From: Acidobacteriota bacterium
Lineage (GTDB): Bacteria; Acidobacteriota; Vicinamibacteria; Vicinamibacterales; SCN-69-37
DNA length: 64,000 nt
Assembly (NCBI GenBank): GCA_016716905.1
Contig: JADJUS010000022.1
Location: 140,053 to 204,052 of the forward strand
Direction: 5' to 3'
A program made the translations under genes and the position numbers. Shown piece after piece: positions 9,833 to 55,694 of the stretch (the stretch's first letter is position 1; each line of letters opens with the position of its first letter). Under the pieces are notes generated by a model. That model was given only the letters and a program-made list of their open reading frames with translations, did not search any database and was not told where the DNA came from.

Positions 9833-9904
9833 TGGGCGATACAGGATTCGAACCTGTGACAGCCGGCGTGTAAGGCCAGTGCTCTACCGCTGAGCTAACC
9901 GCCC
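9833..9904 (-). tRNA. tRNA-Val (TAC)
   Basis: Hand-folded cloverleaf: acceptor GGGCGGT/ATCGCCC, D arm GCTC/GAGC, anticodon loop CTTACAC, T arm ACAGG-TTCGAAT-CCTGT. CCA is not encoded. Confidence 0.88.
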
Positions 9905-9950
9905 GTGCCGACAACCGGACGATTATCCCACCGACGCGGGCCCGATGACA

Positions 9951-9971
9951 AGTCCAGAGTCCAAAGTCCAG
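9951..9971. repeat. heptamer micro-repeat (AGTCCAG)x3; two further units at 10006-10019
   Basis: agtccag agtccaa agtccag read directly. Same family as the arrays at 11091, 28021, 30331, 42472 and 45302. Confidence 0.85.
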
Positions 9972-10028
9972 GGCCTGCCCGCCGTAGCGCAGCGCGCGGA
10001 GGCGGGTCCAGAGTCCGCTCGGGCCATC

Positions 10029-21181: not shown

Positions 21182-21586
21182 ATGGCTATGTATTACGTCT
21201 TCCTTGGCGTCTACGCGATCGTCTGTTTCCTGCTGCTGGTGGTCGTCCTGCTGCAGCAGGGGAAGGGCGGAGACATTGCGGCTGCCTTCGGCGGTTCAAG
21301 CAGCCAGGCGGCGTTTGGCGCACGCGCCGGCGCCACGGTCCTGACACGGGCCACGACAATTCTGGGCGCGCTGTTCATGCTCGGCGCGCTGGCCCTGGCG
21401 GTCATGGGATCGTCGGGTGGTTTCGGCGGGTCGGTTGTGAGCGGCGTCTCTGGTCCGGCGGCACCGGCCGCCACGGCGCCGGTCGTTGATCCGCTGTCGA
21501 ACCCGGGCGCAGTGCCGACGCCTCCGGCAACAACGCCGCCGGCGACACCACCGGCTGGCGGTCGGACGGGCGGCGGCGGGAAATAG
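21182..21586 (+). CDS. secG: preprotein translocase subunit SecG
   Basis: Two TM helices flank LLQQGKGGDIAAAFGGSSSQAAFG. Pro/Thr/Ala-rich tail. Confidence 0.85.
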   Translation: MAMYYVFLGVYAIVCFLLLVVVLLQQGKGGDIAAAFGGSSSQAAFGARAGATVLTRATTILGALFMLGALALAVMGSSGGFGGSVVSGVSGPAAPAATAPVVDPLSNPGAVPTPPATTPPATPPAGGRTGGGGK

Positions 21587-21609: not shown

Positions 21610-21696
21610 GCGGAAGTGGCGGAATTGGCAGACGCACCAGCTTGAGGGGCTGGCGGTAGCAATATCGTGGGGGTTCGAGTCCCCCCTTCCGCACCA
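21610..21696 (+). tRNA. tRNA-Leu (GAG)
   Basis: Acceptor GCGGAAG/CTTCCGC, anticodon stem CCAGC/GCTGG with loop TTGAGGG, long variable arm, T arm GGGGG-TTCGAGT-CCCCC. CCA is encoded. Confidence 0.9.
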
Positions 21697-21702
21697 ATAT
21701 TG

Positions 21703-21725
21703 GTCTGAGGGCTTCGCCCTCAGAC
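21703..21725 (+). terminator. stem-loop just downstream of tRNA-Leu
   Basis: gtctgagggc-ttc-gccctcagac forms a perfect 10-bp stem. There is no U-tract, so intrinsic terminator function is uncertain. Confidence 0.4.
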
Positions 21726-21883
21726 TCCCTACACACTCACTCGTTCGGCGCTTCGACGCCTCTCTCCGTTCGCGTGGCGCGGCCGCTGACCGCGACCGCG
21801 CTGTGCCACTCGTGTGCCAATCGTGCAGGCCGGCTGGACCGACGGCGGTTGCCGCGACGACACGTGGCCGGTATCCTGCTGTG

Positions 21884-22213
21884 ATGATCCTCGCAAAGGC
21901 CGTTGCCCTGCTCGGCGTGGTGGTGATGTCGGCCGCGCTTTTTCATGGCTTCGCGAACGGTGACTTCTTCGGCGAAGGGCGCCAGCTCGCGGCCATGCCC
22001 TGGGGCATTGTCTCGCTGGTCGATCTCTACACGGGCTTCGTGCTGTTTTCGGGCTGGATCATCTACCGCGAGCGATCCGTGCTCGTCGCCGTGTTATGGA
22101 CGATCGCGATGATGACGCTCGGTTTCTTCGCCGGCAGTCTCTACACGTTCATCGCGCTTCACCGCAGCGGCGGCGACTGGCGGCGCTTCTGGCTGGGCCG
22201 GCACACCTCATGA
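21884..22213 (+). CDS. DUF1475-like small membrane protein
   Basis: Start at ATG 21884 (MILAKAVALLGVVVMSAALFHGFANGDFF...). Three or four TM helices. The family assignment is from memory of the GDF..EG...PWG..SLVDLY pattern. Confidence 0.55.
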   Translation: MILAKAVALLGVVVMSAALFHGFANGDFFGEGRQLAAMPWGIVSLVDLYTGFVLFSGWIIYRERSVLVAVLWTIAMMTLGFFAGSLYTFIALHRSGGDWRRFWLGRHTS

Positions 22214-22516
22214 TGAGCCGCGCTCATTTGCGCTAGCAAGGCCGTCCAGTGCTGCACCAGCGTCAGCGATCGCGCGTTGTCTGAAGCACCGTCGTCGATC
22301 ACCAACTTCTGGCCGTCGGCCGACACGTCGTAGGTCATGCCGCCGCGGATGCCATGGGCGCGGCTCGGTCTTTGCGCCACCCGGCGCTGGCTTCAAGGGA
22401 GCGACCCAGAGGTCGGGGCCGGCGTTCTTGCCATAGCGCTCAAACAGCGCCCGCAACGATCGCCGCTTCGGTCCCAGTGCCATTGGATGGCTTGCCGAAG
22501 AGACTGAATACCCCAT
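22159..22516 (-). pseudogene. frameshifted C-terminal remnant of a PD40/TolB-like beta-propeller protein
   Basis: Two overlapping minus-strand frames read ...GPDLWVAPLKP... and ...MTYDVSADGQKLVIDD...SLTLVQHWTALL. These resemble the last blade and C-terminus of PD40-repeat proteins. No N-terminal body is present. Confidence 0.5.
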
Positions 22517-22561
22517 TGCGGTTGGAACTGAGGCCCTCCAGCTCTGGGGCTGGCCGCGCGA

Positions 22562-23026
22562 TCAGCCGCCGAACTGGCGCAGGTGGTGATCGGTGTGGCG
22601 GTAGCCCCAGATCATCCACTCGTCACGGGACATCGTGCCGAAGAGCGGGTGCGCCGCCGGCACTGATGTTGGGGCGCCAAACGCCCGCAGCAGCGCGATC
22701 GCCCGTGCGCGATCGCCCTCGAAGACGTCGGGCGCCGTGCCACCCTTCTCCGCATCCACCTCCGGCATGGTCTTGACCCCCTTCGGCCAGGTCATCGACG
22801 TATGGAGTGCGATCCACTTCACGACGGTGCGGTTGAACCAGTGGTCTCCGCGCGTGGCGACCGGGCGATGGCCGGTGACGACGAGGAACGCATCGCTCAG
22901 ATGGCACACCATCTGGTGACTCGTCATTCGCCCCCACTGCCGCTCCGATCCGGGCAAGAGCGCGTTGAGGCGTGCGGTCAACGAGTCCACGGCGCCGGGG
23001 TCAGAAAGTTTCGCAAAGGTGGTCAT
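22562..23026 (-). CDS. DinB-superfamily protein (DUF1569-like)
   Basis: Start at ATG 23026 (MTTFAKLSDP...). RQWGRMTSHQMVCHLSDAF and C-terminal HTDHHLRQFG match a four-helix DinB-type His pattern. Confidence 0.6.
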   Translation of the reverse strand: MTTFAKLSDPGAVDSLTARLNALLPGSERQWGRMTSHQMVCHLSDAFLVVTGHRPVATRGDHWFNRTVVKWIALHTSMTWPKGVKTMPEVDAEKGGTAPDVFEGDRARAIALLRAFGAPTSVPAAHPLFGTMSRDEWMIWGYRHTDHHLRQFGG

Positions 23027-23427
23027 CGGGTCCTCGGCGCGGGAATCGAATAGTCCACGTGCGCCTGCGACGGGAATCGTACTTTCGAGCGCCGGCCATC
23101 GGCGACCAGTCGCGCATGGGCTTCGGCCCAGGTCGGCGGCGTCGTGCTGTCCTGATTCCAGTGCGCGGTCGCGGCTTCGTCGCACCATTCCATCAGCTTC
23201 GGCATCGCCACTTTGTGTGCGCCGGAGATCATGTAGCCCCGCATCGCCGCCTCGTCGCGCCAGGTCGTCACGGTCCAGAACGCCAGTCGAGCGTCGTTCA
23301 AGACCTCAGACGTCAGGTTGCCGTCGGCGCCCTTCGACTGCCGCTGCGATCTGGCGGCGTGGAAGAGAAAGGCCGGCAGAAATCGCCATGACCTCAGGCG
23401 CAGGCGTGTCACGGAAACGAATGGCAT
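23023..23427 (-). CDS. hypothetical protein
   Basis: 134-aa ORF with a 4-nt overlap onto the downstream DinB-like gene. No motif assigned confidently; possibly an ABM-like alpha+beta barrel. Confidence 0.45.
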   Translation of the reverse strand: MPFVSVTRLRLRSWRFLPAFLFHAARSQRQSKGADGNLTSEVLNDARLAFWTVTTWRDEAAMRGYMISGAHKVAMPKLMEWCDEAATAHWNQDSTTPPTWAEAHARLVADGRRSKVRFPSQAHVDYSIPAPRTR

Positions 23428-23664
23428 CCAGAAAGTCTAAAACAAATGGCGCCCATCTGTTCGCCGGCGCAGCTGCCTGCGATCGTCGTACCGCGGCCTC
23501 GGTCTCGCGCGTGCGCGAGATCGTGCGTGCGCTGATGGGTGCCGACTGCCTCACGAGACCGAGTTGTTTTTCCCACACACCTCGTTCCGAGCTTCTTCAT
23601 TCGCCACGCGCTGTGCGGGCCGCCCGTGGCACGTGTACTGCAATCTCCTGAACCGGAGGCAAAT

Positions 23665-23907
23665 ATGGCTTTCGCTGACCTGAAGACAGTGGCAACCGAG
23701 AAGATTGACGACCGTGTGCAAGCAGCCAAACGGGTGATTCGACAGCGCACCAACGATCTCGAAGATCTGCGTGATGCCGCCACACTCAAGATCCGGCGCG
23801 CGCCGATTCAGACCGTGGCGATCGCGGCCGGTGCCGGGATCCTGCTGGGATTCGTGATTGGTGCGACACGTGGCCGCGCCCGCGCGAATCGCATCCAGCC
23901 GATGTAG
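23665..23907 (+). CDS. DUF883 (ElaB/YqjD-like) membrane-anchored protein
   Basis: ATG 23665 is preceded by GGAGG. Coiled N-terminal part and a C-terminal TM helix (QTVAIAAGAGILLGFVIG). Confidence 0.65.
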   Translation: MAFADLKTVATEKIDDRVQAAKRVIRQRTNDLEDLRDAATLKIRRAPIQTVAIAAGAGILLGFVIGATRGRARANRIQPM

Positions 23908-23911
23908 GACG

Positions 23912-24232
23912 TTATTGCCCCTGGCCTTCGCCGGCCCGTGGGCCGAAGCCGAAACGGTCGCGCACCGCCCGCCGGAATCGTTCACGTTCCTCCGGTGTGT
24001 AGCGACCGCTGCGTGACGACGACAGGCCGCGCCCGAATCCGCCGAAGAGGATTCGGCACAGGGCGAGCAAGCCCAGCGCCTGCCAGAAGGAGACCTGCGG
24101 CCACCCGAAGAGCGGCGGCATCAGCCAGTTCCAGAGCAGGAGTACAACCTGGCCGCCGACGAAGGCGAACAGCAGCATTCCCAGAATCGCCAGCGGCGCG
24201 ATGAACAGCAACTTCCTCGATCGATGGATCAT
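23912..24232 (-). CDS. small membrane protein co-transcribed with the ECF sigma factor (possible anti-sigma partner)
   Basis: 106-aa ORF starting 10 nt after the sigma-factor stop. Two TM helices and a basic C-terminal tail. No ZAS motif. Confidence 0.45.
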   Translation of the reverse strand: MIHRSRKLLFIAPLAILGMLLFAFVGGQVVLLLWNWLMPPLFGWPQVSFWQALGLLALCRILFGGFGRGLSSSRSGRYTPEERERFRRAVRDRFGFGPRAGEGQGQ

Positions 24233-24242
24233 GGTCGGGTCC

Positions 24243-24827
24243 TCAGTGGTTCGTCAGTTCGTCGTAGATGTCCTGCAACCGCTCGCGCAGTTGGAGGACC
24301 GCGTAGCGCTTGCGTGAGAGCAGCGTGTTCACGCTGATGCCGGTCTCGGCGGCCATTGCCTTGAAGCTGCGGCCGTCGATTTCGTGCGCGACAAACACGT
24401 CGCGCTGTGCGTCCGGCAACTCGTCCACCGCCAGTGCAAGGGCATCGATGAGCGCCTGGCGTGCGAGTAACGCGTCAGGGCCGGCGTCGGGTGAGGGCAG
24501 CAGCTCCTCGAACCGTAGCCACTCGTCGTTCTCATCCCCGTGGCCCGAGGCGGCGCGGCTGGGGAAGGGTTCGGGCTTCTTCTTCCGGAAGAGATCGGTG
24601 ATGCGGTTGCGCGCCACGCGAAACAGCCAGCCCGTGACGTGGTCGATGGGCATCAGCCGCCGGTTCGCCTCGACCAACTCGTAGAAGACGTCCTGGAGAA
24701 TGTCTTCCGCATCGCGCGGGTCCGGCACGCGCCGGCGGATGAATTGGCGAAGCCGCGACTCTTCCCGCGTGACCACGTCGTCGATCCGCCGGTCTTGTTC
24801 AACGGCCATGGGGTGCAGGTGTGTCAC
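24243..24827 (-). CDS. ECF-type RNA polymerase sigma-70 family factor
   Basis: Region 2 (EDILQDVFYELVE, WLFRVARNRITD) and region 4 HTH (SFKAMAAETGISVNTLLSRKRYAVLQLRE). Confidence 0.88.
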   Translation of the reverse strand: MTHLHPMAVEQDRRIDDVVTREESRLRQFIRRRVPDPRDAEDILQDVFYELVEANRRLMPIDHVTGWLFRVARNRITDLFRKKKPEPFPSRAASGHGDENDEWLRFEELLPSPDAGPDALLARQALIDALALAVDELPDAQRDVFVAHEIDGRSFKAMAAETGISVNTLLSRKRYAVLQLRERLQDIYDELTNH

Positions 24828-24951
24828 CAGTCATTCGCCTACAGGTGTAGACGGATGAGACGTGCGGATATTGTAGGGGGCCGCTGCCAGCGCCTCAGCC
24901 CACCCGCAGAGGATCACTGAACCATGGCGTCCAGAAACGCGATGGCGTCAT

Positions 24952-24986
24952 CCTACTTCCCTACTTCCCTACTTCCCTACTTTCCC
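24952..24986. repeat. octamer tandem repeat (CTACTTCC)x4
   Basis: cctacttccctacttccctacttccctactttccc read directly. Lies between the BNR gene stop and the ECF sigma start. Confidence 0.9.
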
Positions 24987-25022
24987 AGCGATCGCCGTGA
25001 CCGCGTCCCAGTAGAACCCCTC

Positions 25023-28001
25023 CTAGCGGCCCCCGTGCTCGGCCATCATCGGGTCGTCACGCACGGTGACCGTGCCCTCGAGCGTCTGCCCGTTCACTCG
25101 CAGGGTGACGCGGTAGGTGCCGGCGCCGGCCGTGCTGTTGCCGATGGGCGAGCCGAACAGCGGGCGCCCGGCCGCCTCGCCGTTGAAGTCGGTCACCAAC
25201 TCCAGGCGCACCCGATTGAGCGCGGCATCGGTGGAGGCGGCCGTCAGCGCCGTGCGCAGCCGGCCGAGCTGCTGGCGCCGGGTGGCATCAGCCACGCGCC
25301 CGTCCAGAAACGCGATGGCCGCGTCGAGACGGGCCGCCATGGCGGCGCGTTCGGCTGCGGTGGTCGGGAACTGGAAGTTCCAGTGCGCGCGATTGATGCC
25401 GGCCTGCGCACCGCCGCCGCCCAGACGCACGGTCGCGATGCGGTCACCGGCAAACTCCGAGACGTTCAGTGTCACCGGGCCTTGCGGCGCTTCGCGCAGC
25501 CAGAAATTGATCGAGGCGCCCGCTGGTGGATTGGCACCGCGAAACAGGAAGTCTTCCTGCATGCGCCCCAGGTCGATCGTCACCCACCTGGTGGCCACCT
25601 CGCTTCGGAACAGGTGCGCGGCCGTGTTCGCCACGGCCGGCGTCATCTGCCGTAGTGGGGTAAGGTCATCCAGAATCCAGATGGCCCGGCCATGGGTGCC
25701 GGCAATCAGGTCTCCGTCACGCGGGTGAATCACCAGATCCAGCACCGCCACGTTGGGCATGCCGCTTGACAGCTTGAACCACGTGGCGCCGCCTTCGGTC
25801 GAGGCGTACACGCCGAACTCCGTGCCCAGAAACAGCAGGTTCGGGTTCACCGGGTCTTCGTTGATGACGTATGACCCGATGCCCTTGGGCAGATTGCCAG
25901 TGATGTTGGTGAACGTGGCGCCAAAGTCGCGTGTCACGAACACATGCGGATCCATGTCGTCGAGCCGATGGTTGTCGAGCACCACGTAGGCCGTGCCGAC
26001 CGCGTGGTGTGAGGGCTCCACGCGGCTGACCCACACCTCGCCGGTGACACCCGGCAGGTTGCTGCGCACATTCGTCCAGCGGGCGCCGCCGTTCCTCGTC
26101 ACCTGCACATTGCCATCGTCAGTGCCCGCCCAGATCAGCGCCGGGTCGAGCGGCGACTCTCGGACGTCGAACACCGTGAAGTGGTTTTCGCCGCCCGTCA
26201 CCTCGCGCGTCAACCCGCCCGAGTTCGACGGATTGCGCAACTCGGCATTATTGGCCGTCAGGTCGGGGCTGATGATGCGCCACGTGTCGCCGCGATCCAC
26301 CGACTTGAACACGTGATTGCCGCCGAAGTACAGCGTGCGCGGGTTGCTGGGCGACATCGTCAGCGGACTGTTCCAGTTGAAGCGGAAGTGCGGCGGCATC
26401 AGCGGCCGGTTGGGTTGCCCATAGCGGAACCAGTGCTCGCCGGGTGCAATCGTGTATCGGATGGGTGTTTCGGTGTAGCCCACGTCGGAGTAATCCGAAA
26501 AATTCAGCACCGTCTCCGGCGTGGGCGTGATGAACGTCGGCTGGCGTGTCTCAACGTTCAGGCGCATCGCAAACCCGACGTGATTCACCATGTAGGTCAC
26601 GCGATAGTCGGTGGGGTCGACCAGGGAGGCAAAGCCGTCGCCTTCACCCAGCCACGTGTTGTGCATGTTGAGGATGCCGCGGGTCTCTCGAGAATTGCTC
26701 GGGCCGCTCCAGATCGCGTTGTCCTGCAGACCGCCGACCACCCAGTACGGGTCGCGCATGTCGACGCCCACCTTGTAGTACTGCCCGATGGCCATGTTGT
26801 CGAACGAGAGAATCGTCTGGCCGTCATCCACCGTCAGGTACGCGCCCTGGTCGGTGGCGGTATAGAAGATCTTCGAGTCGCTGGGCGACATCCAGAAGTC
26901 GTGCTCGTCCCCGCCGCCGCCCCACCATTTGTCGCGCCAGGTGACGCCGCCGTCGAGCGACACCTTGAACTCGCGTCCCACCGAGAAGATGCGCTTCGGG
27001 TTGTTCGGGTCGATGAGCACCTGCCCGTGGTAGAACGGTCGCAGGTGGGTCTTCAGCAGCCACTTCCACGACGCCCCCGCATCCTCGGAGATGTAAATGC
27101 CCGAGCCCGGCGTCTGTGCGCTCGTCGGTCGCGACGGGTCGTACGGGATGTTCTCGTCGGCTTCGTACGCCGCCACGACGATGTCGGGGTTGGCGCGGTG
27201 AATCGAGATATCGATCATGCCCGAGTCGCCGGCCGCCAGGCCGTTGCTCATCCGCTGCCACGTGCGGCCGCCATCGCGCGTCTTGAAGATGCCGCCATTG
27301 GGTCCGCCCGAGTGCATCGTTGCCGGCTGTCGCAGCCGGTGATACATGCCGGCGTACAGGATGTCGGGGTTGCGCGGGTCCATCACGACTTCGGTGGCGC
27401 CCGTGCGTCCGTCGTTGGGCAGGCCGCCCGCCAGTTTCGTCCAGGTGGTGCCGCCGTCAGTGGTCTTGAACAGGCCGCGGTCGCCCGAGTAGCCCCACAG
27501 GTGGCCGGGGGAGGCGGCGTAGGCGATGTCGGGATTGGTCGGGTGCAGCGCGATCTCCGCGATGTGGTGGGTGTTGGCCAGACCGACGTGCCGCCACGTC
27601 TTGCCGGCGTCGATGGTCTTGAACAGCCCGTTGCCCCAGCCGCTCGAGTTGCGGTTGGCCGCCTCACCCGTGCCCACCCAGATGATGTTGGGGTTCGGCT
27701 CGAAGATCGCCACTGAGCCGATCGAGCCGGCGCCCTCGGAGCGGTCGAAGATCGGGTCCCATGTGATGCCGGCATTTTTCGAAAGGAACACGCCGCCCGA
27801 AGCGGACGCCACCACCACGTAGCGGTGATCGGTGGACAGGGCCTCGATGGCGGCGATGCGGCCCGTCATGTTGGCCGGACCGATGTTGCGCCACCGCAGG
27901 TCGCGGGCCAGCGGATGCGTCGCCGCTGGAGCCTGGAACGCACCCAGCGACGCAACTACTCCCAGCCACACCGCCGCACCCCACAACCTGGAAATTCTCA
28001 C
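25023..28001 (-). CDS. secreted sortilin/VPS10-like BNR (Asp-box) repeat beta-propeller protein
   Basis: GTG start 28001 lies 8 nt after AAGGAG (28010-28015). Signal peptide present. About 9 SxDxGxTW-type boxes: SKNAGITW, TIDAGKTW, TTDGGTTW, TRDGGRTW, SEDAGASW, SLDGGVTW, SVDRGDTW, TRNGGARW, STEGGATW. Confidence 0.8.
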   Translation of the reverse strand: MRISRLWGAAVWLGVVASLGAFQAPAATHPLARDLRWRNIGPANMTGRIAAIEALSTDHRYVVVASASGGVFLSKNAGITWDPIFDRSEGAGSIGSVAIFEPNPNIIWVGTGEAANRNSSGWGNGLFKTIDAGKTWRHVGLANTHHIAEIALHPTNPDIAYAASPGHLWGYSGDRGLFKTTDGGTTWTKLAGGLPNDGRTGATEVVMDPRNPDILYAGMYHRLRQPATMHSGGPNGGIFKTRDGGRTWQRMSNGLAAGDSGMIDISIHRANPDIVVAAYEADENIPYDPSRPTSAQTPGSGIYISEDAGASWKWLLKTHLRPFYHGQVLIDPNNPKRIFSVGREFKVSLDGGVTWRDKWWGGGGDEHDFWMSPSDSKIFYTATDQGAYLTVDDGQTILSFDNMAIGQYYKVGVDMRDPYWVVGGLQDNAIWSGPSNSRETRGILNMHNTWLGEGDGFASLVDPTDYRVTYMVNHVGFAMRLNVETRQPTFITPTPETVLNFSDYSDVGYTETPIRYTIAPGEHWFRYGQPNRPLMPPHFRFNWNSPLTMSPSNPRTLYFGGNHVFKSVDRGDTWRIISPDLTANNAELRNPSNSGGLTREVTGGENHFTVFDVRESPLDPALIWAGTDDGNVQVTRNGGARWTNVRSNLPGVTGEVWVSRVEPSHHAVGTAYVVLDNHRLDDMDPHVFVTRDFGATFTNITGNLPKGIGSYVINEDPVNPNLLFLGTEFGVYASTEGGATWFKLSSGMPNVAVLDLVIHPRDGDLIAGTHGRAIWILDDLTPLRQMTPAVANTAAHLFRSEVATRWVTIDLGRMQEDFLFRGANPPAGASINFWLREAPQGPVTLNVSEFAGDRIATVRLGGGGAQAGINRAHWNFQFPTTAAERAAMAARLDAAIAFLDGRVADATRRQQLGRLRTALTAASTDAALNRVRLELVTDFNGEAAGRPLFGSPIGNSTAGAGTYRVTLRVNGQTLEGTVTVRDDPMMAEHGGR

Positions 28002-28020
28002 GTCAACAACTCCTTACCCC

Positions 28021-28060
28021 GGACCCCGGACCCTGGACCCTGGACTCTGGACTCTGGACC
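28021..28060. repeat. heptamer tandem repeat (GGACYCY)x5.7
   Basis: ggacccc ggaccct ggaccct ggactct ggactct ggacc. Abuts the stop codon of the proline-racemase-like gene and lies 5 nt from the SD of the BNR gene. Confidence 0.92.
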
Positions 28061-29124
28061 TACCAAATGTCCCCCACTGTGTACCCGTTCGGGAACGGGT
28101 CTTCCGGATCCACCACATACGAGGCGAATCCCGTGATCCACGCGGTGCCCGTGATGGTGGGCACCACCGCCGTACGCGCCTGCGCGCCGGCGCCAACCGT
28201 GGTTGTGGCGATCAGGCGGCCCGTGAACACCGTGCCCAGGATGCCCTCGTGGCGGAAGTCTTCGTGCAGGCCCAGCTGACCCTTCGCGTGCAGGATTGCC
28301 ATTTTTGCCGACGTGCCCGTGCCGCAGGGTGAGCGATCGATGACGCCCGTCCACGTGGAGGGTTTGTTCCAGTCGAGGATGCCGGTGGACACCGTCACGG
28401 CGTTACGGCACGAGTTGGCCGGGTCGTGCGGCGGGCCTGACAGCTGGCCGATGGTGATGCCGGCAAACCCAGGTTGGTCCGGGTGGACGACGGGCAGTTG
28501 TTCGGCGGCCGCGGCCTCGATCATCTCGGTCGTGCGGGTGATGTCGCGTCCTTCGTCGGGCGTCAGCCGGAAGCCGAACTGTGCCGCATCGGCAATCACG
28601 TAGAACATGCCGCCGTAGGCGACGTCGACGGTCACCGTGCCCAGTTGTGGCACTTCGATGGGCTGGTCCAGGTGGGTGGCAAACGCCGGGACGTTGGTGA
28701 ACGTGACCCCACGCACTTTGCCGTTGCGGCACTCCGCGTGGACCCGGATCAGGCCCGCCGGCGATTCCAGCACCACGTCGGTGGTGGGTTCGGTCATCGG
28801 CAGCATGCCTGTTTCGAGCAGGGTGGTCACCACGCAGATCGTGTTTGTGCCCGACATGCCGGGGTATTCGACCTGTTCCATGATGACGAAGCCGGCCTGG
28901 GCTTCGGCGTGGGTGGTGGGCAGGATCAGGTTGCAGTTGGCGGCCGGGTAGCCGCGTGGTTCGCGCAGCATCCGCAGCCGCAGGTCGTCGCCGTGTGTCT
29001 GCAGCCACGTCATCTTCTCGAACATCGTCGTGCCCGGCACGTCGAGCACGCCGCCGACGATGACGCGTCCGGGTTCGCCGGCCGCATGCAGGTCGACGGC
29101 CTGTATCATCCGGTTCAGTCGCAT
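28060..29124 (-). CDS. proline racemase family protein (hydroxyproline epimerase/dehydratase-like)
   Basis: AVDLHAAGEPGRVIVGG and DRSPCGTGTSAKMA (second catalytic Cys). The first catalytic position reads GMSGTN, with Ser instead of Cys. Confidence 0.85.
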   Translation of the reverse strand: MRLNRMIQAVDLHAAGEPGRVIVGGVLDVPGTTMFEKMTWLQTHGDDLRLRMLREPRGYPAANCNLILPTTHAEAQAGFVIMEQVEYPGMSGTNTICVVTTLLETGMLPMTEPTTDVVLESPAGLIRVHAECRNGKVRGVTFTNVPAFATHLDQPIEVPQLGTVTVDVAYGGMFYVIADAAQFGFRLTPDEGRDITRTTEMIEAAAAEQLPVVHPDQPGFAGITIGQLSGPPHDPANSCRNAVTVSTGILDWNKPSTWTGVIDRSPCGTGTSAKMAILHAKGQLGLHEDFRHEGILGTVFTGRLIATTTVGAGAQARTAVVPTITGTAWITGFASYVVDPEDPFPNGYTVGDIW

Positions 29125-29247
29125 ACGCGCATTGTAGCCACAGCCCCGGTCTGCGGGACCGGCTTCGGCCGCAGCACGATTGGGACCAACGCGCGCTCAG
29201 CCAGCTTGCCAAGATCCGGTTGCGCCCGTAGAATCACGTCAGGATCT

Positions 29248-29275
29248 GTGGGGGTTCGAGTCTCCCCTTCCGCAC
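29248..29275 (+). other. tRNA-Leu 3'-end fragment (T arm plus acceptor), a possible relic att site
   Basis: gtgggggttcgagtctccccttccgcac matches tRNA-Leu 21667-21694 at 27 of 28 positions. Weaker similarity extends into the flanks (cgtag.aat upstream, attgg downstream). There is no 5' half. Confidence 0.75.
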
Positions 29276-29407
29276 TATTATTGGATCGCCGGGGGACCCT
29301 GCACCCCGGCTAGCTCCACGGCCCTCCGCGCGGACGCTCTGGGCCGCTCCGCAGGGCATCCCTGTTGGAACGCCGAGGCACAGAACCGCAACTAGCTTCC
29401 GCGAACC

Positions 29408-31261
29408 ATGCCCCTCCTGACCCTCGACCACATTTCCACGGCCTTCGGCCACGTGCCGTTGCTCGACGACGCCTCGCTGCAAATTGAAGCCGGCGAGCGG
29501 ATCGCCATTGTCGGACGTAACGGCACCGGCAAGTCCACCCTCCTCAAGATCATTGCCGGTGACCTGGAACCCGACGCGGGCACGATTTGGCGAGGGCCTG
29601 GTGTGAAGGTCTCACGGCTGCCGCAGGATGTCCTTGAAGCCAGTGCCGACCGCCGGAGCGTCCACGATGTGGTCTCCGAGGGCGTGCACGGGCTCGACGA
29701 GGAAGACTGGGAACGCGAACAACGTGTGGATCAGATCATCGAGCGCCTGGATCTCAATGCCACCGCCCGCGTGAACGAGCTGTCGGGCGGATGGCGCCGG
29801 CGCGTCTGGCTGGCGCGGGCCCTGGCCGCACAGCCCGACATATTGCTGCTCGACGAACCCACCAACCATCTCGACATCGAGGCCATCACGTGGCTCGAGG
29901 ACATCGTTGAAAAACACCGCGGCGCCGTGGTGTTCGTCACGCACGACCGCGCCTTCCTTCAACGAGTGGCCACGCGACTGGTGGAACTCGATCGGGGCCA
30001 CCTGACCTCCTACGCCCCGGATCCTGCCGCCCGCAGCGGTGCCGTTCCTGTGTACGACGAGTATCTGCGACGCAAGGAAGAAGCACTCGCCATCGCGGCC
30101 ATGGCCCACGAGAAGTTCGACAAGCGGCTCGCGCAGGAAGAAGTCTGGTTGCGGCAGGGCATCAAGGCGCGACGCACCCGCGACGAAGGCCGCGTCAAAG
30201 CGCTCATGCAGATGCGCGCCGAACGCTCCCAGCGCCGGCAGGCCATCGGCTCGGTGCGACTGACGATGGACGCCGGTGAGCGGTCGGGCAAGCTCGTCTT
30301 CGACGTCAAGAGCATCTCGAAGACCTTCGCGGTCCAGGGTCCAGAGTCCAGAGTCCAGGGTCCTGTCATTGCCGAATTTTCAACCCGCATCATGCGTGGT
30401 GATCGCATCGGCGTGCTTGGACCAAACGGCGCGGGCAAGACCACGCTGTTAAAGATGCTCGTGGGCGAATTGCCACCTGACACCGGCACGGTGGAGATTG
30501 GGACCAACGTCCAGATTGCGTACTACGACCAGCAGCGCGAGCAACTGGACCCCGAGCGCACCGTGGTGGACACCGTTGGTGACGGCAACGACGTGGTGAC
30601 GGTCGGTGGACGCAGCCGGCACGTCCACGGCTACCTCGAAGACTTCCTGTTCCCGGCCGCGCGTGCGCGGTCCAAAGTCAAAGCGTTGTCGGGCGGGGAA
30701 CGTAATCGCCTGCTGCTGGCGCGACTCTTCACGCGCCCGGCGAACGTACTGGTGCTCGACGAGCCAACGAACGACCTCGACATCGAGACCCTCGAATTGC
30801 TGGAGTCACAACTGGCGGAGTTCGACGGCACGGTGCTGCTCGTCAGCCACGACCGGGCGTTCCTCAACAATGTCGTCACCAGCACGATGGCCTGCGAAGG
30901 CAACGGTATCGTCCGCGAGTATGTGGGAGGATACGACGATTGGCTGCGGCAGTCAGCCACCCCGACCTCGGCAGGCGACGCCTCCGGGAAACGGTCGCCG
31001 ACGGATCAGGCTCCGCCTGCGAAGGCGATTGCCAAGAAAAAGCTCTCGTTCAAGGAACAGCGCGAGTTCGATGGGCTGCCCGCGCAGATCGAATTGCTCG
31101 AACGCAGCATTGCCACACGTGACGATGTCATCGCCAGCGCGGAGTTTTATCGCAAGGGCGCAGAACAGATCCGGATCACGCTCCAACAACAGGACGAAGA
31201 ACGCACCGCCCTGATTGCGGCGCTCGCACGCTGGGACGAATTGGATTCGCGCACGCGTTAG
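29408..31261 (+). CDS. ABC-F family ATPase (Uup-like)
   Basis: Two ABC cassettes: GRNGTGKST / LSGGWRRRV / LLLDEPTNHLD and GPNGAGKTT / LSGGERNRL / LVLDEPTNDLD. C-terminal coiled-coil domain. Confidence 0.9.
   Translation: MPLLTLDHISTAFGHVPLLDDASLQIEAGERIAIVGRNGTGKSTLLKIIAGDLEPDAGTIWRGPGVKVSRLPQDVLEASADRRSVHDVVSEGVHGLDEEDWEREQRVDQIIERLDLNATARVNELSGGWRRRVWLARALAAQPDILLLDEPTNHLDIEAITWLEDIVEKHRGAVVFVTHDRAFLQRVATRLVELDRGHLTSYAPDPAARSGAVPVYDEYLRRKEEALAIAAMAHEKFDKRLAQEEVWLRQGIKARRTRDEGRVKALMQMRAERSQRRQAIGSVRLTMDAGERSGKLVFDVKSISKTFAVQGPESRVQGPVIAEFSTRIMRGDRIGVLGPNGAGKTTLLKMLVGELPPDTGTVEIGTNVQIAYYDQQREQLDPERTVVDTVGDGNDVVTVGGRSRHVHGYLEDFLFPAARARSKVKALSGGERNRLLLARLFTRPANVLVLDEPTNDLDIETLELLESQLAEFDGTVLLVSHDRAFLNNVVTSTMACEGNGIVREYVGGYDDWLRQSATPTSAGDASGKRSPTDQAPPAKAIAKKKLSFKEQREFDGLPAQIELLERSIATRDDVIASAEFYRKGAEQIRITLQQQDEERTALIAALARWDELDSRTR
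30331..30365. repeat. heptamer tandem repeat (GGTCCAG/AGTCCAG)x5 inside the ABC-F coding sequence
   Basis: ggtccag ggtccag agtccag agtccag ggtcctg, translated as VQGPESRVQGP just upstream of the second Walker A. Confidence 0.9.
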
Positions 31262-39768: not shown

Positions 39769-42525
39769 ATGCCGTCTTTCGTTCGGGTCAGGCCTCTTCT
39801 CTTCATCGTCACGGCATTCGCGACCGGTGCGCTGGTCGCCGTGCCGCAGGCCCGGCCGCCGCAGGGCGCTGCCCCTGCTGTCAGCGTGAAGCAGGGCCGC
39901 ATTCCCCTGACGGTCGAACGGTACCTTCCAGGCGCTCCGGTCACACTGGGCGTCCCATTTCCCAAAGGTGCGCTGGAGTCACCCGACCACGTTCGGGTGC
40001 TGCGGCCCGACGGCACTGAGCAGCCCAGTCAGGTCACCGAAGTGACCACCTGGGATCCGATTGACCCGAGCCTCAAGTGGGTCTGGGTGTTTTTCTTCGC
40101 CGAGGCCGGACCGGCGTATTCGCTCGAATACGGCCCCGCCGTGCGCCGGCAGCCGGTCACCTCGCGCCTGGAATTTGTCAACAACCCGCGCGCGCAGGGC
40201 CTGGCCGAGATCACCACGGGACCTCTGCGCTTCGTCGTGCGCCAGGGTGATACCGGATTCTTGTCATCGGTCCAACTTGACCTTGCGGGCGACGGCTATA
40301 GCGACGCGGACGTGATCGCCACCGGCCCCGTGGGCCGAGGCTCGTTCGCGGATGTTCTGGACGACGCGGGCGTGGATCACTCACGGGCCGTCGTCCTGCG
40401 CACCACGATGGACAAAGGGACCGGCCCGCTGCACGCCATCCTCCGGGTGGAAGGCGAGTACCGATACGGGCGCGCCGACAACCAGACGTCACCCTTCGTC
40501 ACGCGCATCCACGCGTACGCGGGCAAACCGTACATTCGCGTGCTGCACACATGGATTTACACGGGCACGCCAGACAAACATCGGCCGCAGGCAGGCGACT
40601 ATCCGCATGTCGCCACCCAGGGCGCGTCACTCATCACCACCGACCCCACAGACACGGGCTGGACGGTGCCCAACGACCGGTTGCAGGGCCTGGGCCTGTC
40701 GTTGTCACTGCCGCTGACTGCGCGCGCCGAGACTCGGATCGGTCTGCGCAACGGGTCCTGGTGGTCACCTGGCGACCGGCGCGTGGCGCTCGTGCCTCCG
40801 GGCCCGGCCAGCCTGGTCCAGCTTGGCCCGAAGCCCGACCGGATTCCGCCGGTCCCGAATTCGTCGGCAAGCTCGCGCCTGAGCGCCGCCGAGGGGTTCG
40901 AGGCGACGGTGACAAGTGGAGTGCGGGTCATCGATCGCGCTGAACGTGCCGAGGGCTGGATCGATGTCTTTGATGGCACGCGAGGGGTGGCCATCGGGAT
41001 CAAACACCTCGTTGAGGAGTATCCGAAAGCCCTGACCTTCGACGCGGCCGCCGGCACGATATCAGCATTCTTCTGGGCGCCCGAGGCGGGCCCCATGAGT
41101 TTCGCACGCGCCTCGAACGCACCGGCCAACGAGAACGCCGTCGAAAACTGGGCCCAGGGGCTCGCCAAAACCAGTGAAGTGCTGCTCTTCTTTCACGGGT
41201 CCCAGACCACGGTGGACGAAGTGGCCGCCACCATGCAGCTCGTGCTGGCGCCCCCGGTGGCCCACGTCGCACCGGCGTGGTACGGCACGAGTGACGTCTA
41301 TGGCGCCATGGCGCCGCAGAGCGCTCGTCACGGCGATCTGCAACGAAGTCTGGATTACAAGTTTTCCTGGATGCGTTTCAACCAGGCGTGGGAACCGTGG
41401 TTCGGCATGTTCGAACACGGCGACATGATGAACACCTTTGACGGCCAGCGCTGGAGCGTCTTCGGCAACGGAGAACCCGCGCAGGACTTCATGTGGTGGC
41501 TGCAGTTCATGCGCACGGGCGATGCGGACACCTTCGACACGGCGATGGCGTTCAGCCGTCACACCATGGACGTGGACAACACCCACTGGCCCGCCGGACC
41601 GCAGTTCATCGGCGACACGAACTACCCGATGGACTACTGGTCCACGTTGACGGCGCCACCAGCCACGAAATACCTGGGCGTCGGCCGGCGCCATGCCGAC
41701 CAGCACTGGATGCACATCCTCAGTGCGCACGTCTGGGTGCAGGGCTGGATGGCCTCGTATTACCTGGCGGGTGAACAACGGGGTCTCGACGTGGCTCGCC
41801 TCACAGCCGATATGCACTTGCGCCGGCTCTGGGGTGAACACGAATTGACCGGGCGGCGGCTCTACCTGTCGATCTGGAATCTCGCGGAAGTGTGGGACGC
41901 CACCAAGGATGTGCGCTACGAACGTGAGCTCGACGACCGCGTGGGTCGCATGTTGGCCCTGCAGCGCGACCAGGCCGACAGCCTCGTGCTGGAGCGATAC
42001 GGATATACCAACGTCTACGCGTCGCACGGGCTCGGCAAATATCTGTCGATGACTGGCGCCCCAGCGGTGCGCAGCGCCCTCATCCGGCACGCGCGCGCGG
42101 TCCGTGACATGCCGCCCCTCAACCACGGCATGGAGTCGTACCTCTCAAGCATTCACAGTCTCGCGCTCGGATACCGGTTGACCGGAGATCGCTCGTTTGT
42201 CGACGAGATGACCCGCCGGCTGGACCCGCTCAAGGTCGATCCCCTGCCCCGGCCCATCGATGAACGCTGGACGCAACAGGACTTGTTCAGCGCCCTCGAG
42301 CGCGCCGATCACTTCCCAGACGACCCGAACCGATTCCGGCCCAACGCATCAAATCAGGGCACCACGGCGCCGCCACCGCGCCGCCCGATCTGGTCATTCA
42401 CCAACGGCCTCCGCGTATTCGGGTGGACCAGCGCGTACACAGTGCCGTGGGCGATACAAATACTTGAAGATGTCCAGGGTCCAGAGTCCAGGGTCCAGGG
42501 TTCAAAAAAAGAGAAGGAGCAGTGA
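39769..42525 (+). CDS. secreted PcRGLX-like (PL26 exo-rhamnogalacturonan-lyase-like) three-domain protein; function tentative
   Basis: Signal peptide, then N-terminal IPLTVERYLPGAPVTLGVPFPKG...SLKWVWVFF (RIFT-barrel-like pattern). C-terminal toroid-like FGMFEHGDMM...WWLQFMRTGDADTFDTAMAFSRHTMDVDNTHW. Assignment is from memory of the family pattern. Confidence 0.55.
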   Translation: MPSFVRVRPLLFIVTAFATGALVAVPQARPPQGAAPAVSVKQGRIPLTVERYLPGAPVTLGVPFPKGALESPDHVRVLRPDGTEQPSQVTEVTTWDPIDPSLKWVWVFFFAEAGPAYSLEYGPAVRRQPVTSRLEFVNNPRAQGLAEITTGPLRFVVRQGDTGFLSSVQLDLAGDGYSDADVIATGPVGRGSFADVLDDAGVDHSRAVVLRTTMDKGTGPLHAILRVEGEYRYGRADNQTSPFVTRIHAYAGKPYIRVLHTWIYTGTPDKHRPQAGDYPHVATQGASLITTDPTDTGWTVPNDRLQGLGLSLSLPLTARAETRIGLRNGSWWSPGDRRVALVPPGPASLVQLGPKPDRIPPVPNSSASSRLSAAEGFEATVTSGVRVIDRAERAEGWIDVFDGTRGVAIGIKHLVEEYPKALTFDAAAGTISAFFWAPEAGPMSFARASNAPANENAVENWAQGLAKTSEVLLFFHGSQTTVDEVAATMQLVLAPPVAHVAPAWYGTSDVYGAMAPQSARHGDLQRSLDYKFSWMRFNQAWEPWFGMFEHGDMMNTFDGQRWSVFGNGEPAQDFMWWLQFMRTGDADTFDTAMAFSRHTMDVDNTHWPAGPQFIGDTNYPMDYWSTLTAPPATKYLGVGRRHADQHWMHILSAHVWVQGWMASYYLAGEQRGLDVARLTADMHLRRLWGEHELTGRRLYLSIWNLAEVWDATKDVRYERELDDRVGRMLALQRDQADSLVLERYGYTNVYASHGLGKYLSMTGAPAVRSALIRHARAVRDMPPLNHGMESYLSSIHSLALGYRLTGDRSFVDEMTRRLDPLKVDPLPRPIDERWTQQDLFSALERADHFPDDPNRFRPNASNQGTTAPPPRRPIWSFTNGLRVFGWTSAYTVPWAIQILEDVQGPESRVQGSKKEKEQ
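42472..42500. repeat. heptamer tandem repeat (GTCCAGG/GTCCAGA)x4 at the 3' end of the PcRGLX-like gene
   Basis: gtccag ggtccag agtccag ggtccag ggtt, encoding VQGPESRVQGS. Followed by an A-run and AAGGAG (42514-42519). Confidence 0.9.
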
Positions 42526-45302
42526 TGTCGAGACGATTGATCAGAACCGCGTTGGGCGCTGCCGCGATGGCTGCCGTGCTCTTGTCTGTGTCGCCACGCG
42601 TCAGCACCCAGGTCACGGTACTCAACCACGACACCGGGCCGGTCGGACTCGGCCTGGCCCTGCGCCAGCTGCCCGTCGAGGGTTCAATGCTGTACGTCAC
42701 GGCCCACCCGGACGATGAGAACAATGGCGTGCTGGTGGCGCTCAATCGCGGCCGCGGACTCAAGACCTCGCTGTTGACGGTCACGCGCGGCGACGGCGGC
42801 CAGAATGAAATTGGCCCGGAGCTGTTCCAGGCGATCGGCATCCTGCGATCGGAGGAACTCGCAGCGGTGCACCGGTACGACGGCGCCGACCAGTACCACA
42901 CGCGCGCCTACGAGTTCGGCTACTCCTTCAGCGTCGAAGAGACCTTTGAAAAGTGGGGCAAGGACGAAATCCTGGCCGACGTCGTGAAGGTCATCCGCAT
43001 GACGCGGCCCGACATCATCCTCACCATGAACCGCGATGGCCAGGCGGGGGGCCAGCACCACATGGGCTCGGCGCGCCTGGCACAGGAGGCGTTCCGCGTG
43101 GCGGCAGACCCCACGCGCTTCCCGGAGCAACTCAAGGCCGGACTCCGGCCCTGGCAGGCCCGCAAGGTCTATCAGGCGGGCGCGGGAAACCCCGGCGGGG
43201 GTGCGGCGCAGTCATCAGCCGGCGGCGCGGCGCCGCCGCAACGGCCGGTCCGCATCAGCACGGGCGACTACGACCCGCTGCTCGGCATGTCGTGGGCGCA
43301 GTTCGGCACACTCGCGCGCCGCAACCACCTGTGCCAGGGCATGGGCCAGACCGAAAGCCGGCCCGGTGAAGCGGGCGGCTCGTATTCGCTCTATGACAGC
43401 CAGCCGCGCGTGGCCGGCGACGAGCAGGACGTGCTTGAAGGTATTGACACGTCACTGCGGCGACTGGCCGCGTTCGCGACCGGCCAGGAAGCGAAAATAC
43501 CGACACTTGGCGCGGACCTCGATGCCATCGAGGCGTCGGCACGCGCGGCCATCGAGGCCTTCGACGCGCGCGCCACACACAAGACGTTGCCCCACATCAC
43601 CCGGGGTCTGGGTCAGGTGCGCGCCTTGCGCACGGCCGTGGCCGGCAGCACGTTGACTGCCGACGCGCGCGCCGAAATTGTCTGGCGCCTCGATCGCAAG
43701 GAACGCGATTTCATGAAAGCCCTCGAACTGGCCCAGGGCGTCGTCACCCACATCACCGTGCCTGATGGCAACGTGGTGCGCGGCCAGACCTTCGATGTCA
43801 TGGCGCAGGTGTTCAACACAGGGACAGAGCCGATGTCGGTGGACGAGGTCTCGCTCCAGGTGCCGGAAGGCTGGACCGCCGTGCTCAAGCAGGGCCAGCC
43901 GGTCGCCTTGAAACACAACGAGGCCGCCACGCTGCTCTACAGCGTCACCGTCGGGCCGAACGCGCGGTACTCACAGCCGTACTGGAAGCGCAAACCCGGT
44001 CCGGTGGAGCGCACGGGCGGCGACATCTACGACCTCGACATTCCCGAACACCATCTGCTGCCGTGGAGTCCCCCGGATGTGACCGCCACGGTGAGCTATG
44101 CCGCCGGCGGAGCGAACGCCGCCGTGACCGCGCCCGCGTATTACCGCTACGACGGCCCCTGGGTGGGCGGCGAAAAGCAGAAGGTGCTGAACATCGTGCC
44201 GCACGTGTCGGTGAAACTGACGCCGGACATTGCGGTGGTGCCGCTGACGGCGGGAGGCAAGAAGAAGGAATTTCGCGTCTCGGTGCTCAACAATGCACCT
44301 GGCGGATCGGCGGTCAAAGTGCGGCTCGAAACTCCGGCGGGCTGGAAGGTGGAACCCGCCGAAGCCACACTGAACTTCTCCGTGGAAGAAGAAGAAATGT
44401 CGGCGCAGTTCTTCGTGACGCCGCCGGCGCGGGTCACACCGGGCGAAGCCGTCATTCGCGCCGTGGCCGAGCGCGGCACCGAGACGTTTCGCGAAGGCTA
44501 CCAGGTCATCGCGTATAACCACATTCAGACGCGGCACCTCTTTCACCCGGCCGCGTCGAAGATCAAGATGATTGACGTGGTGGTGCCGGCCAACCTGCAG
44601 GTCGGCTACGTGGTGGGCACGGGGGATGATGTCCCTGCAGCCATCCGCCAGCTCGGCGCGACCGTGACGATGTTGTCGCCCGACGACGTGGCGTTTGGAG
44701 ATTTGTCGAAGTACTCGACGATCGTGCTCGGCATCCGCGCCTATGAGAAACGGCCGGACGTACGCGCGTACAACCAGCGGCTCTTCGACTTCGCTCGCAA
44801 CGGTGGCCACCTTGTTGTGCAATACAACAAGACGGCCATGAATCAGCTCGGCGGCGGCCAGGCTGGTCCTCCTCCAGGCGCGTTCGGCGGTGGTGGTCCC
44901 GGGGGTGGACGCGGCGGTCGCGGAAGTGCGCCGCCCAATAGTCCCTACGTCCCGTATCCAGGTGGCATCACGAGCAATCGCGTGACGGTGGAAGAGGCCC
45001 CGGTGCGGGTACTTGAAGACGGCACCACTGAGATGAGCCGCCCAAACCGCATCACGGCTGCCGACTTCGAGGGCTGGGTGCAGGAGCGCGGTCTCTACTT
45101 CTTTGGCGCCAACGATCCGCGGTACACCGACATCCTGGCCGCCACCGACCCATGGGCCTTCAACCCGGGTGAAAAGAAGGGCATGTTGACCGTGGCGCAA
45201 TTGGGCAAAGGCACGTGGACGTATGTGGGCCTTGGCCTCTGGCGCCAGCTGCCGGCCGGAACGCCCGGCGCGTATCGGATCCTCGCGAACCTGCTTCGGT
45301 AG
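42525..45302 (+). CDS. PIG-L/LmbE family deacetylase fused to a large C-terminal region with a GATase1/ThuA-like end
   Basis: ATG 42525 lies 5 nt after AAGGAG (a GTG at 42522 is the alternative). Motifs MLYVTAHPDDENNG and TRGDGGQNE. C-terminal STIVLGIRAYEKRPD...NGGHLVVQY. Confidence 0.8.
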   Translation: MSRRLIRTALGAAAMAAVLLSVSPRVSTQVTVLNHDTGPVGLGLALRQLPVEGSMLYVTAHPDDENNGVLVALNRGRGLKTSLLTVTRGDGGQNEIGPELFQAIGILRSEELAAVHRYDGADQYHTRAYEFGYSFSVEETFEKWGKDEILADVVKVIRMTRPDIILTMNRDGQAGGQHHMGSARLAQEAFRVAADPTRFPEQLKAGLRPWQARKVYQAGAGNPGGGAAQSSAGGAAPPQRPVRISTGDYDPLLGMSWAQFGTLARRNHLCQGMGQTESRPGEAGGSYSLYDSQPRVAGDEQDVLEGIDTSLRRLAAFATGQEAKIPTLGADLDAIEASARAAIEAFDARATHKTLPHITRGLGQVRALRTAVAGSTLTADARAEIVWRLDRKERDFMKALELAQGVVTHITVPDGNVVRGQTFDVMAQVFNTGTEPMSVDEVSLQVPEGWTAVLKQGQPVALKHNEAATLLYSVTVGPNARYSQPYWKRKPGPVERTGGDIYDLDIPEHHLLPWSPPDVTATVSYAAGGANAAVTAPAYYRYDGPWVGGEKQKVLNIVPHVSVKLTPDIAVVPLTAGGKKKEFRVSVLNNAPGGSAVKVRLETPAGWKVEPAEATLNFSVEEEEMSAQFFVTPPARVTPGEAVIRAVAERGTETFREGYQVIAYNHIQTRHLFHPAASKIKMIDVVVPANLQVGYVVGTGDDVPAAIRQLGATVTMLSPDDVAFGDLSKYSTIVLGIRAYEKRPDVRAYNQRLFDFARNGGHLVVQYNKTAMNQLGGGQAGPPPGAFGGGGPGGGRGGRGSAPPNSPYVPYPGGITSNRVTVEEAPVRVLEDGTTEMSRPNRITAADFEGWVQERGLYFFGANDPRYTDILAATDPWAFNPGEKKGMLTVAQLGKGTWTYVGLGLWRQLPAGTPGAYRILANLLR

Positions 45303-45357
45303 GACCCTGGACTCTGGACTCTGGACTCTGGACTCAGGACCCTGATTTCAGGACCCA
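45302..45357. repeat. heptamer tandem repeat (GGACYCT)x6 plus a detached unit
   Basis: ggaccct ggactct ggactct ggactct ggactca ggaccct gatttca ggaccca. Fills the gap between convergent stops and runs into the last codons of the VanZ-like gene. Confidence 0.92.
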
Positions 45358-55649: not shown

Positions 55650-55694
55650 AACTGCTTCTGGTAGTAGCGCCCGGTGCGGCACTATTGTTGTGAC

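Follow-up and report, generated by a model that had tools for sequence, protein, structure and literature searches.

GGACYCT heptanucleotide arrays in a Vicinamibacterales genome: a dispersed repeat family whose unit number differs between strains

Described heptamer families and the GGACYCT repeat

Dispersed heptamer SSRs have been described in Xanthomonas and in Nostoc PCC 7120, where the units are GGGAATC and GGGGA(C/T)T, respectively (Rehm et al. 2015, PMC4692102). Both are biased toward non-coding DNA and depleted between divergent ORFs, both lie near the ORF on their 5' side irrespective of its orientation and overlap stop codons on the coding strand, and both are found singly or as inverted pairs, with lengths that vary between relatives; 83% of the GGGAATC arrays are common to Xcc and Xac, and the authors saw no link to phase-variable gene classes (PMC4692102). 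A 2007 report, as it is cited in that paper, found heptamers over-represented among the long SSRs of large, high-GC genomes; also cited there are the idea that polymerase slippage is the cause and the STRR heptanucleotides of heterocystous cyanobacteria, for example Calothrix PCC 7601. The TAACTGA direct repeats are known from marine Beggiatoaceae, Cyanobacteria and Bacteroidetes (MacGregor 2015, PMC4679880); these sets are mostly in the forward orientation and lie a few nt before the start codon, where they replace the Shine-Dalgarno sequence.

The repeat described here has the unit GGACYCT (AGRGTCC on the other strand) and was analysed in a 64-kb stretch of Acidobacteriota DNA with a G+C content of 66%, called the window below. 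Like the Xanthomonas and Nostoc heptamers, it is a dispersed 7-bp tandem unit present far above chance and biased toward non-coding DNA, frequent between co-directional or convergent ORFs and rare between divergent ones; it displays the same polarity to the ORF on its 5' side and the same stop-codon overlap on the coding strand, occurs in single or inverted-pair forms, varies in unit number between strains, and is without a link to surface or phase-variable gene classes. Like theirs, its C-type unit fits the G3N4 heptamer pattern (AGGGTCC, = GGGTCCA). It differs from them in unit sequence and host phylum, and about half of its units are of the T-type (AGAGTCC), which has no G-tract; a canonical G4 motif is present in 42 of the 136 arrays listed, and alleles of a single locus differ in having it. 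No preference for four units is seen among the matches listed, where copy numbers fall monotonically from three (the scan took only arrays of at least three units), and, unlike the GGGAATC arrays shared by Xcc and Xac, GGACYCT arrays are poorly conserved between relatives of about 90% protein identity.

With TAACTGA the family shares the amplification of one heptamer into short direct-repeat sets at many loci, distributed patchily across phyla, with some sets inside ORFs and some directly upstream of translation starts. GGACYCT arrays, however, are anchored at stop codons and are then followed by a normal AAGGAG or GAAGGAG. The family therefore lacks both the general G4 motif that characterizes the Xanthomonas and Nostoc heptamers and the start-codon placement that characterizes TAACTGA. 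The STRR units are CCCCAGT, TTGGTCA and CAACAGT; they too are tandem heptanucleotides at many dispersed, mostly intergenic loci, and differ from the present family in unit sequence and in the Vicinamibacterales host of the latter. Hypermutability, a unit number that differs between close strains and a unit length that is not a multiple of three are also found in the contingency SSRs of Haemophilus and Neisseria, but at 28021 the array position is uncoupled from reading frame and promoter spacing, the genes belong to other classes than those of surface variation, and no off alleles were seen.

We judge the GGACYCT family to be of the same kind as the described heptamer SSR families, with a unit that appears to be new. 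The first-pass annotation of this DNA had not recognized the repeat from the literature; this stands for the unit, for which a string search of the literature gave unrelated primer matches only, and does not extend to the class (PMC4692102, PMC4679880). The Acidobacteriota of soil and wastewater, and also Planctomycetota and Desulfobacterota, would thereby join the few lineages that amplify one heptamer into dispersed arrays.

Arrays and their gene context in the window

Tandem GGACYCT/AGRGTCC heptamers are present at every locus where the first-pass annotation had placed them. With up to one mismatch allowed, the two-unit pattern is found 17 times in the window, where shuffled sequences predict 0.04 matches; exact units number 22 (chance expectation for the whole window 12.3 +/- 3.9), of which 18 lie inside arrays and four are isolated. 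Copies and periods were taken from TRF (Table 1), whose own spans are 28016-28060, 30331-30363, 42472-42501, 45302-45344 and 9951-9971 for period 7 and 11090-11120 for period 8. There are five GGACYCT arrays of at least three units in the 64 kb, and five of the nine period-7 arrays with at least three copies belong to the family. The listed repeat at 11091 does exist, but it has a period of 8 and lies within a GT9 heptosyltransferase coding sequence, and its membership in the family is doubtful; comparison with paralogs of 27-28% identity does not demonstrate that it is an insertion. The heptamer had also been described as out of phase with both the codon and the helical repeat, but three units make 21 bp, equal to seven codons and to two helical turns, and a run of three therefore keeps phase with each.

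Table 1. Repeat arrays and neighbouring features in the window
Feature	Position	Strand or unit orientation	Description
Focal array	28016-28062	GGACYCT on +	Period 7, 6.4 copies
Uup array	30329-30365	GGACYCT on -, AGRGTCC on +	Period 7, 4.7 copies
PcRGLX-tail array	42469-42503	GGACYCT on -	Period 7, 4.3 copies
PIG-L/VanZ array	45302-45357	+	6.1 copies to 45344, degenerate units to 45357
Composite array	9949-10016	-	3 units at 9949-9971 (TRF 3.0), 2 units at 10003-10016
GC hairpin of composite	9976-10005		TGCCCGCCGTAGC..GGAGGCGG
GT9 array	11090-11120	-	Period 8, GGACYCCN x3
Pro_racemase gene	28060-29124	-	Pfam PF05544, E=2.8e-115; upstream of focal array
Pro_racemase stop	28062-28060	-	TAG
BNR RBS	28010-28015	-	AAGGAG, 8 nt before start
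BNR start	28001-27999	-	GTG
Sortilin-Vps10/BNR gene	25023-28001	-	Pfam PF15902 (E=9.4e-26), PF02012; downstream of focal array
Uup/ABC-F gene	29408-31261	+	Contains Uup array
PcRGLX-like ORF	39769-42525		C-terminal tail is translated array
PIG-L/NPCBM gene start	42525		ATG
PIG-L gene stop	45300-45302		TAG
VanZ gene	45334-46380	-	Convergent
tRNA-Val	9833-9904
PEMT gene stop	10029
tRNA-Leu(GAG)-adjacent island	21610-29284		About 7.6 kb
tRNA-Leu 3' end	21667-21703		Duplicated at 29248-29284
15-bp tandem repeat	21505-21547		ACGCCGCCGGCAACA; upstream of tRNA-Leu
Octamer array	24952-24982		CCTACTTC x3.9, perfect; downstream of BNR gene
Octamer array	55617-55647		CAGTTCCC x3.9, perfect; just upstream of ORF 55674-57902
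GATTG-type region	8361-8696		340 bp, intergenic, 7/8-mers

On the minus strand the order at the focal locus is the Pro_racemase stop codon, the array, AAGGAG, 8 nt and the GTG start of the BNR gene. This gene order bears out the earlier statement that the array fills the gap between the Pro_racemase stop and the BNR ribosome-binding site (RBS), and the array is thus the entire 58-nt intercistronic spacer. On the plus strand it reads (GGACYCT)5 followed by a terminal GGACCTA, whose end (bases 28060-28062) is the stop codon itself; in the gene sense it is (AGRGUCC)n. An independent gene call in one near-identical contig (L201) gives an identical 992-aa BNR product. Scanning the surroundings of the array for promoters and terminators gave no promoter-like site; the one terminator-like hairpin that turned up is weak and lies inside the BNR gene.

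The locus sits in an island next to tRNA-Leu(GAG), the 3' end of the tRNA being duplicated at the other side. Its cargo consists of DUF1475, DUF1569, an ECF sigma factor, the BNR gene and the Pro racemase; no integrase was seen in it. In relatives of about 90% protein identity the tRNA-Leu gene is followed directly by the ABC-F gene and the whole BNR/Pro-racemase block is missing, and the lineage of Uup homolog P0003 has an IS91-family transposase and a PIN/DUF433 pair at the island site instead. A metagenome search with the Pro racemase gave 80 loci of 75-84% identity, none of them syntenic with the BNR or ABC-F genes, and the orthologous spacer therefore cannot be compared through them. Exact-protein look-ups of the Pro racemase and the PIG-L protein returned no record.

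The PcRGLX-tail array is translated, and 3' of it lie A7, the RBS GAAGGAG and the start of the PIG-L/NPCBM gene. The PIG-L/VanZ array begins on the last base of the PIG-L stop codon, and the convergent VanZ gene terminates within it. At the matching position of a distant PIG-L ortholog (L077) there is an inverted double array that forms, when folded, a hairpin some 70 bp long (-122.7 kcal/mol, z=-11.8). The composite array, between the PEMT gene stop and tRNA-Val, consists of three units, a GC hairpin and two units. The same composite is present in L008, L051, L104 and L119, with the hairpin at L008 1639-1666, L051 2747-2768, L104 2444-2470 and L119 5030-5056, and the hairpin with AGRGTCC units in the same orientation on both sides recurs in three Acidobacteriota genomes; it may be a REP-like element that lives inside the arrays. 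The inverted pair in L077 and this embedded hairpin are the only structured cases, single arrays folding no better than shuffles (z -0.3 to +0.8). The family as a whole was therefore rejected as a REP/BIME or MITE element, since its single arrays have no stable self-structure. Among Rfam covariance models run on the window, three tRNAs alone reach the gathering score, and no family is called for the arrays.

Other 7- and 8-mer arrays are present in the window: the GATTG-type region and the CCTACTTC and CAGTTCCC octamers. The GATTG-type region separates the holB stop from the start of the following gene on the minus strand; GATTGAG, GGATTGCG and GGGATTG fill one half of it, and their complements (ATCCCACC, ATCCTCA) fill the other. 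It is length-polymorphic among eight same-species contigs (a 19-bp indel and others).

Unit number between strains and in the Uup protein

Same-species contigs come from wastewater metagenomes, and three of them that encode an identical Uup protein and are 99.3-99.7% identical to the window provided focal alleles. With the window, this makes four near-identical strains whose focal arrays number 5, 5, 6 and 7 units and have identical flanks. Written as the variable part of GGACnnn, the alleles are CCC, CCT, CCT, TCT, TCT in the window; CCC, CCT, TCT, TCT, CCT in L201 (also five units, in a different order); CCT, CCT, TCT, TCT, TCT, CCT in L203 (six units); and four CCT, then TCT, TAT, TCT in L202 (seven units). 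The C/T unit variants are thus reshuffled between alleles. Aligned with L203 over 6.1 kb, the window shows no indel apart from the focal array, and in alignments of 22 kb and 12 kb the indels fall mostly in tandem repeats (the focal array, the CCTACTTC octamer and the 15-bp repeat), with a few 1-3-nt indels elsewhere. The single indel in L221 (99.46% identical over 9.6 kb) is 21 bp long and corresponds to three missing units of the 45302 array (six in the window, three in L221); the 42469-42503 array is identical in the two. The CCTACTTC octamer has four units in the window and three in L201 and L202. The length of the 15-bp repeat also varies among strains; across the gapped stretch 21505-21541 the window is the shorter.

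The short, degenerate arrays at 9949-10016 and 11090-11120 are invariant in eight same-species contigs. Long pure arrays therefore vary and short impure ones are stable, as is expected of slippage-prone microsatellites; the proposed gain and loss of units is borne out by natural alleles at both the focal and the 45302 array. They should be natural strain-resolving VNTR markers for uncultured Vicinamibacterales.

The array inside the Uup gene reads AGRGTCC in the sense direction and is translated in frame as the insert VQGPESRVQ (27 nt), which precedes the second Walker A motif. The window protein is 100% identical to P0001, whose record carries the name Vicinamibacterales bacterium. In homologs with identities of 75-92% the insert is variously absent, present or longer: it is absent in P0005, P0007 and P0009 (92% identity, 608 aa), 7 aa longer in P0004 (VQGPGSSVQSPGSNVQ; 21 bp, three units) and longer still in P0022, and in the P0011 lineage the copy of the array (L210) has decayed through substitutions. 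Only in-frame length classes were found among the alleles, so that this 7-bp repeat lengthens a protein linker in steps of 21 bp without leaving the frame. Sites without the insert read GGG GGT CCT, which is nearly a unit.

As three units span 21 bp, the AGRGTCC sense yields one and the same cyclic peptide in each of its frames, R-V-Q-G/S-P-G/E-S; the GGACYCT sense encodes G-P/L-W-T-L-D-S/P. Arrays inside ORFs favour the AGRGTCC sense by 28 to 12 among the matches listed in the census described below (p=0.017), a bias that may reflect selection for a flexible, hydrophilic linker. The distant Uup homologs P0033, P0041 and P0054 carry 7-aa tandem repeats (GPEVPGSR x3, SAVRGPQ x2 and GVQGPGSRVQGS) in the C-terminal linker, so that heptamer arrays have entered a second permissive site in the Uup family.

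Distribution, polarity and origin of the arrays

Three exact units were searched in 185,579 species genomes and were found at 120 or more loci in at least 77 genomes; Acidobacteriota account for at least 54 loci in at least 22 genomes. Among the matches listed, genomes with several loci are nearly all Acidobacteriota (at least 10 loci in JBKJQX, 6 in CALMZP, 6 in CAYHEX, 5 in JAKALV and 4 in SHUF), Planctomycetota and Desulfobacterota come next, and two cyanobacterial MAGs (L031, L080) carry (GGACYCT)3. Also among the matches listed, tandem repeats of period 7 far outnumber those of any other period in loci that carry the family, and more than half of the period-7 arrays in these loci are of other heptamers. 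The 80 Pro-racemase relatives served as an unselected control, and their 436 kb of contigs contain no array, even of two units, and no period-7 excess. In viral contigs the unit was found at 10 loci, and four composition-matched control heptamers scanned in the same contigs were found at 15, 12, 17 and 18. GGACYCT is thus not enriched there and phage carriage is not indicated; together with the array-free unselected contigs, these controls argue that amplification is specific to certain lineages and is not a general property of the GGACYCT heptamer. In relatives of about 90% protein identity only the Uup array is present.

The position census covers at least 143 arrays for gene context and at least 136 arrays, from at least 77 genomes, for polarity and G4 motifs; it rests on crude ORF and GC3 gene calls, which can be relied on for stop codons but not for start codons. 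Among the arrays listed, 50 lie between co-directional ORFs, 21 between convergent and 10 between divergent ones, and 46 are inside ORFs. Where AGRGTCC is in the sense strand of a gene that points its 3' end at the array, 34 of 52 listed arrays start within 15 nt of the stop codon, compared with 6 of 40 in the opposite orientation (Fisher p=1.8e-6; p=0.002 for co-directional pairs alone). Of the 80 intergenic arrays listed, 59 have as their nearer neighbour the ORF that lies 5' of them on the AGRGTCC strand (p=2.5e-5), whatever the orientation of that ORF. The adjacent stop is TAG in 17 of 27 listed cases, against a background of 30% (p=5.5e-4), and is often contained in a degenerate first unit (TAGTCC, T+AGGGTCC or TGAGTCC). 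The dominance of one unit, the polarity and the embedded TAG stops are real, and that the polarity to ORF ends and stops recurs here with an unrelated unit makes it a general problem. Unit number varies between strains and the arrays are non-randomly placed, stop-proximal and strand-polar, so the finding survives the outcomes that the first-pass annotation had named as telling against it, among them an invariant copy number together with random placement with respect to genes. G-quadruplex formation as a property of the whole family was rejected; most of the listed arrays have no G4 motif, and the T-type unit breaks the G-tract.

We consider it likely that the arrays form a heptanucleotide microsatellite (VNTR) family that is hypermutable and lineage-amplified, and that the one at 28021 is a length-polymorphic spacer and not an on/off switch. 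Units would be gained and lost through strand slippage or unequal exchange, and the Uup array probably began from a chance proto-unit, since the site without the insert reads GGGGGTCCT. Selection may then filter which arrays persist, namely those in transcribed spacers near ORF ends and in flexible protein linkers, where the AGRGTCC sense would give a benign peptide; arrays have been lost or have decayed in the relatives of about 90% protein identity. Any effect of the 28021 array on the BNR gene should be modulatory at most. Neutral slippage alone does not account for the large share of one unit among the period-7 arrays of the window (five of nine), for its recurrence on many contigs of several Acidobacteriota MAGs, or for the strand polarity of the arrays. 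Unit dominance, polarity and TAG bias together point to an additional directional process or to selection, and a function is possible.

One such function would be that of a multivalent site for a DNA- or RNA-binding protein, the arrays forming a dispersed post-transcriptional or nucleoid network of the type proposed for the TAACTGA repeats (PMC4679880). The dominance of one unit in the genome, its strand-polar placement beside ORF ends, the two window loci with an array directly upstream of an RBS, and its amplification in several Acidobacteriota, Planctomycetota and Desulfobacterota MAGs speak for such a network. Against it, the arrays are not conserved at orthologous positions in relatives of about 90% protein identity, their unit number and order vary freely, and the position downstream of the BNR gene holds CCTACTTC units in the window and a GGACYCN array in L105. 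A polarity that is independent of ORF orientation is moreover hard to reconcile with a site at the RNA level, and no candidate protein was identified; we regard this function as unlikely. A bolder proposal is that the arrays mark a directional process or factor, in common with GGGAATC-type repeats of like polarity, that builds or anchors arrays at ORF ends and often supplies the stop codon, with unit number and a C/T-toggled G4 motif beside the RBS then tuning the neighbouring genes. If this were true the arrays would be a dispersed, evolvable cis-regulatory layer common to several phyla and not passive microsatellites, but we give it little credence.

The first-pass annotation had likened 28021 to a contingency locus. 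As such a locus, or as a tuning one, the array would alter BNR expression by slippage, for example through the length of the spacer or a sense-strand G4 motif toggled by unit number and C/T composition, and slippage in the Uup array would frameshift Uup. Unit number is indeed polymorphic among strains, the Uup unit is not a multiple of three and a change of one unit would put that gene out of frame, and the alleles of the window and L202, unlike those of L201 and L203, have a canonical G4 motif (GGGTCCAGGGTCCGGGGTCCGGGG) right beside the RBS. Against this, the array is upstream of the RBS and neither between promoter hexamers nor in an ORF, so that gain or loss of units changes only the distance from stop to RBS, leaving the distance from RBS to start, promoter spacing and frame as they were; a switch at 28021 is for this reason unsupported. 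Predicted RBS accessibility is similar in all four alleles (0.53-0.76), no promoter-like site was found by the scan around the array, and the Uup alleles found are all in frame. G4 motifs are in the minority of the listed arrays, and the genes next to arrays are mostly housekeeping or metabolic (Uup, tRNA, GT9, PIG-L). The same negative conclusion was reached for the heptamer family of PMC4692102, and for the present one a contingency or tuning role seems quite improbable.

It is very unlikely that an enzyme inserts pre-formed arrays, some of them with the GC hairpin, at stop codons or the 3' ends of ORFs. Junctions of the form CDS-TAG-TCC-(AGRGTCC)n do recur, as does the array-hairpin-array composite in three genomes, and the patchy distribution across phyla could be read as mobility. 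But the proto-unit at Uup sites without the insert fits expansion in place, conserved flanks and target duplications are absent, the register of TAG relative to the unit is not fixed, no association with transposases was seen, and in viral contigs this unit is no commoner than the four control heptamers. Assembly or sequencing artefact can practically be dismissed: short reads can mis-assemble tandem repeats, but these arrays, at 30-55 bp, are shorter than one read, their loci were recovered in independent assemblies of different samples (including one 3.2-Mb contig), and the in-frame protein variants are present in many independent records.

Four contigs outside the window carry arrays in less usual settings. 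In L051 (1360-2800; from JBKJQX, an array-rich Vicinamibacterales MAG) three genes in a row terminate in a TAG joined directly to arrays of 5-10 units, and a 170-aa ORF in the same stretch is bracketed by arrays. In L105 (2300-2500) 26-27-bp tandem repeats adjoin the array. A contig of a Metamycoplasmataceae MAG (L058) has more than 60 GGACYCT units and may be contamination, and in one of a Phycisphaerae MAG (L070) telomere-like TTTAGGG/TTCAGGG arrays are mixed with the GGACYCT unit.
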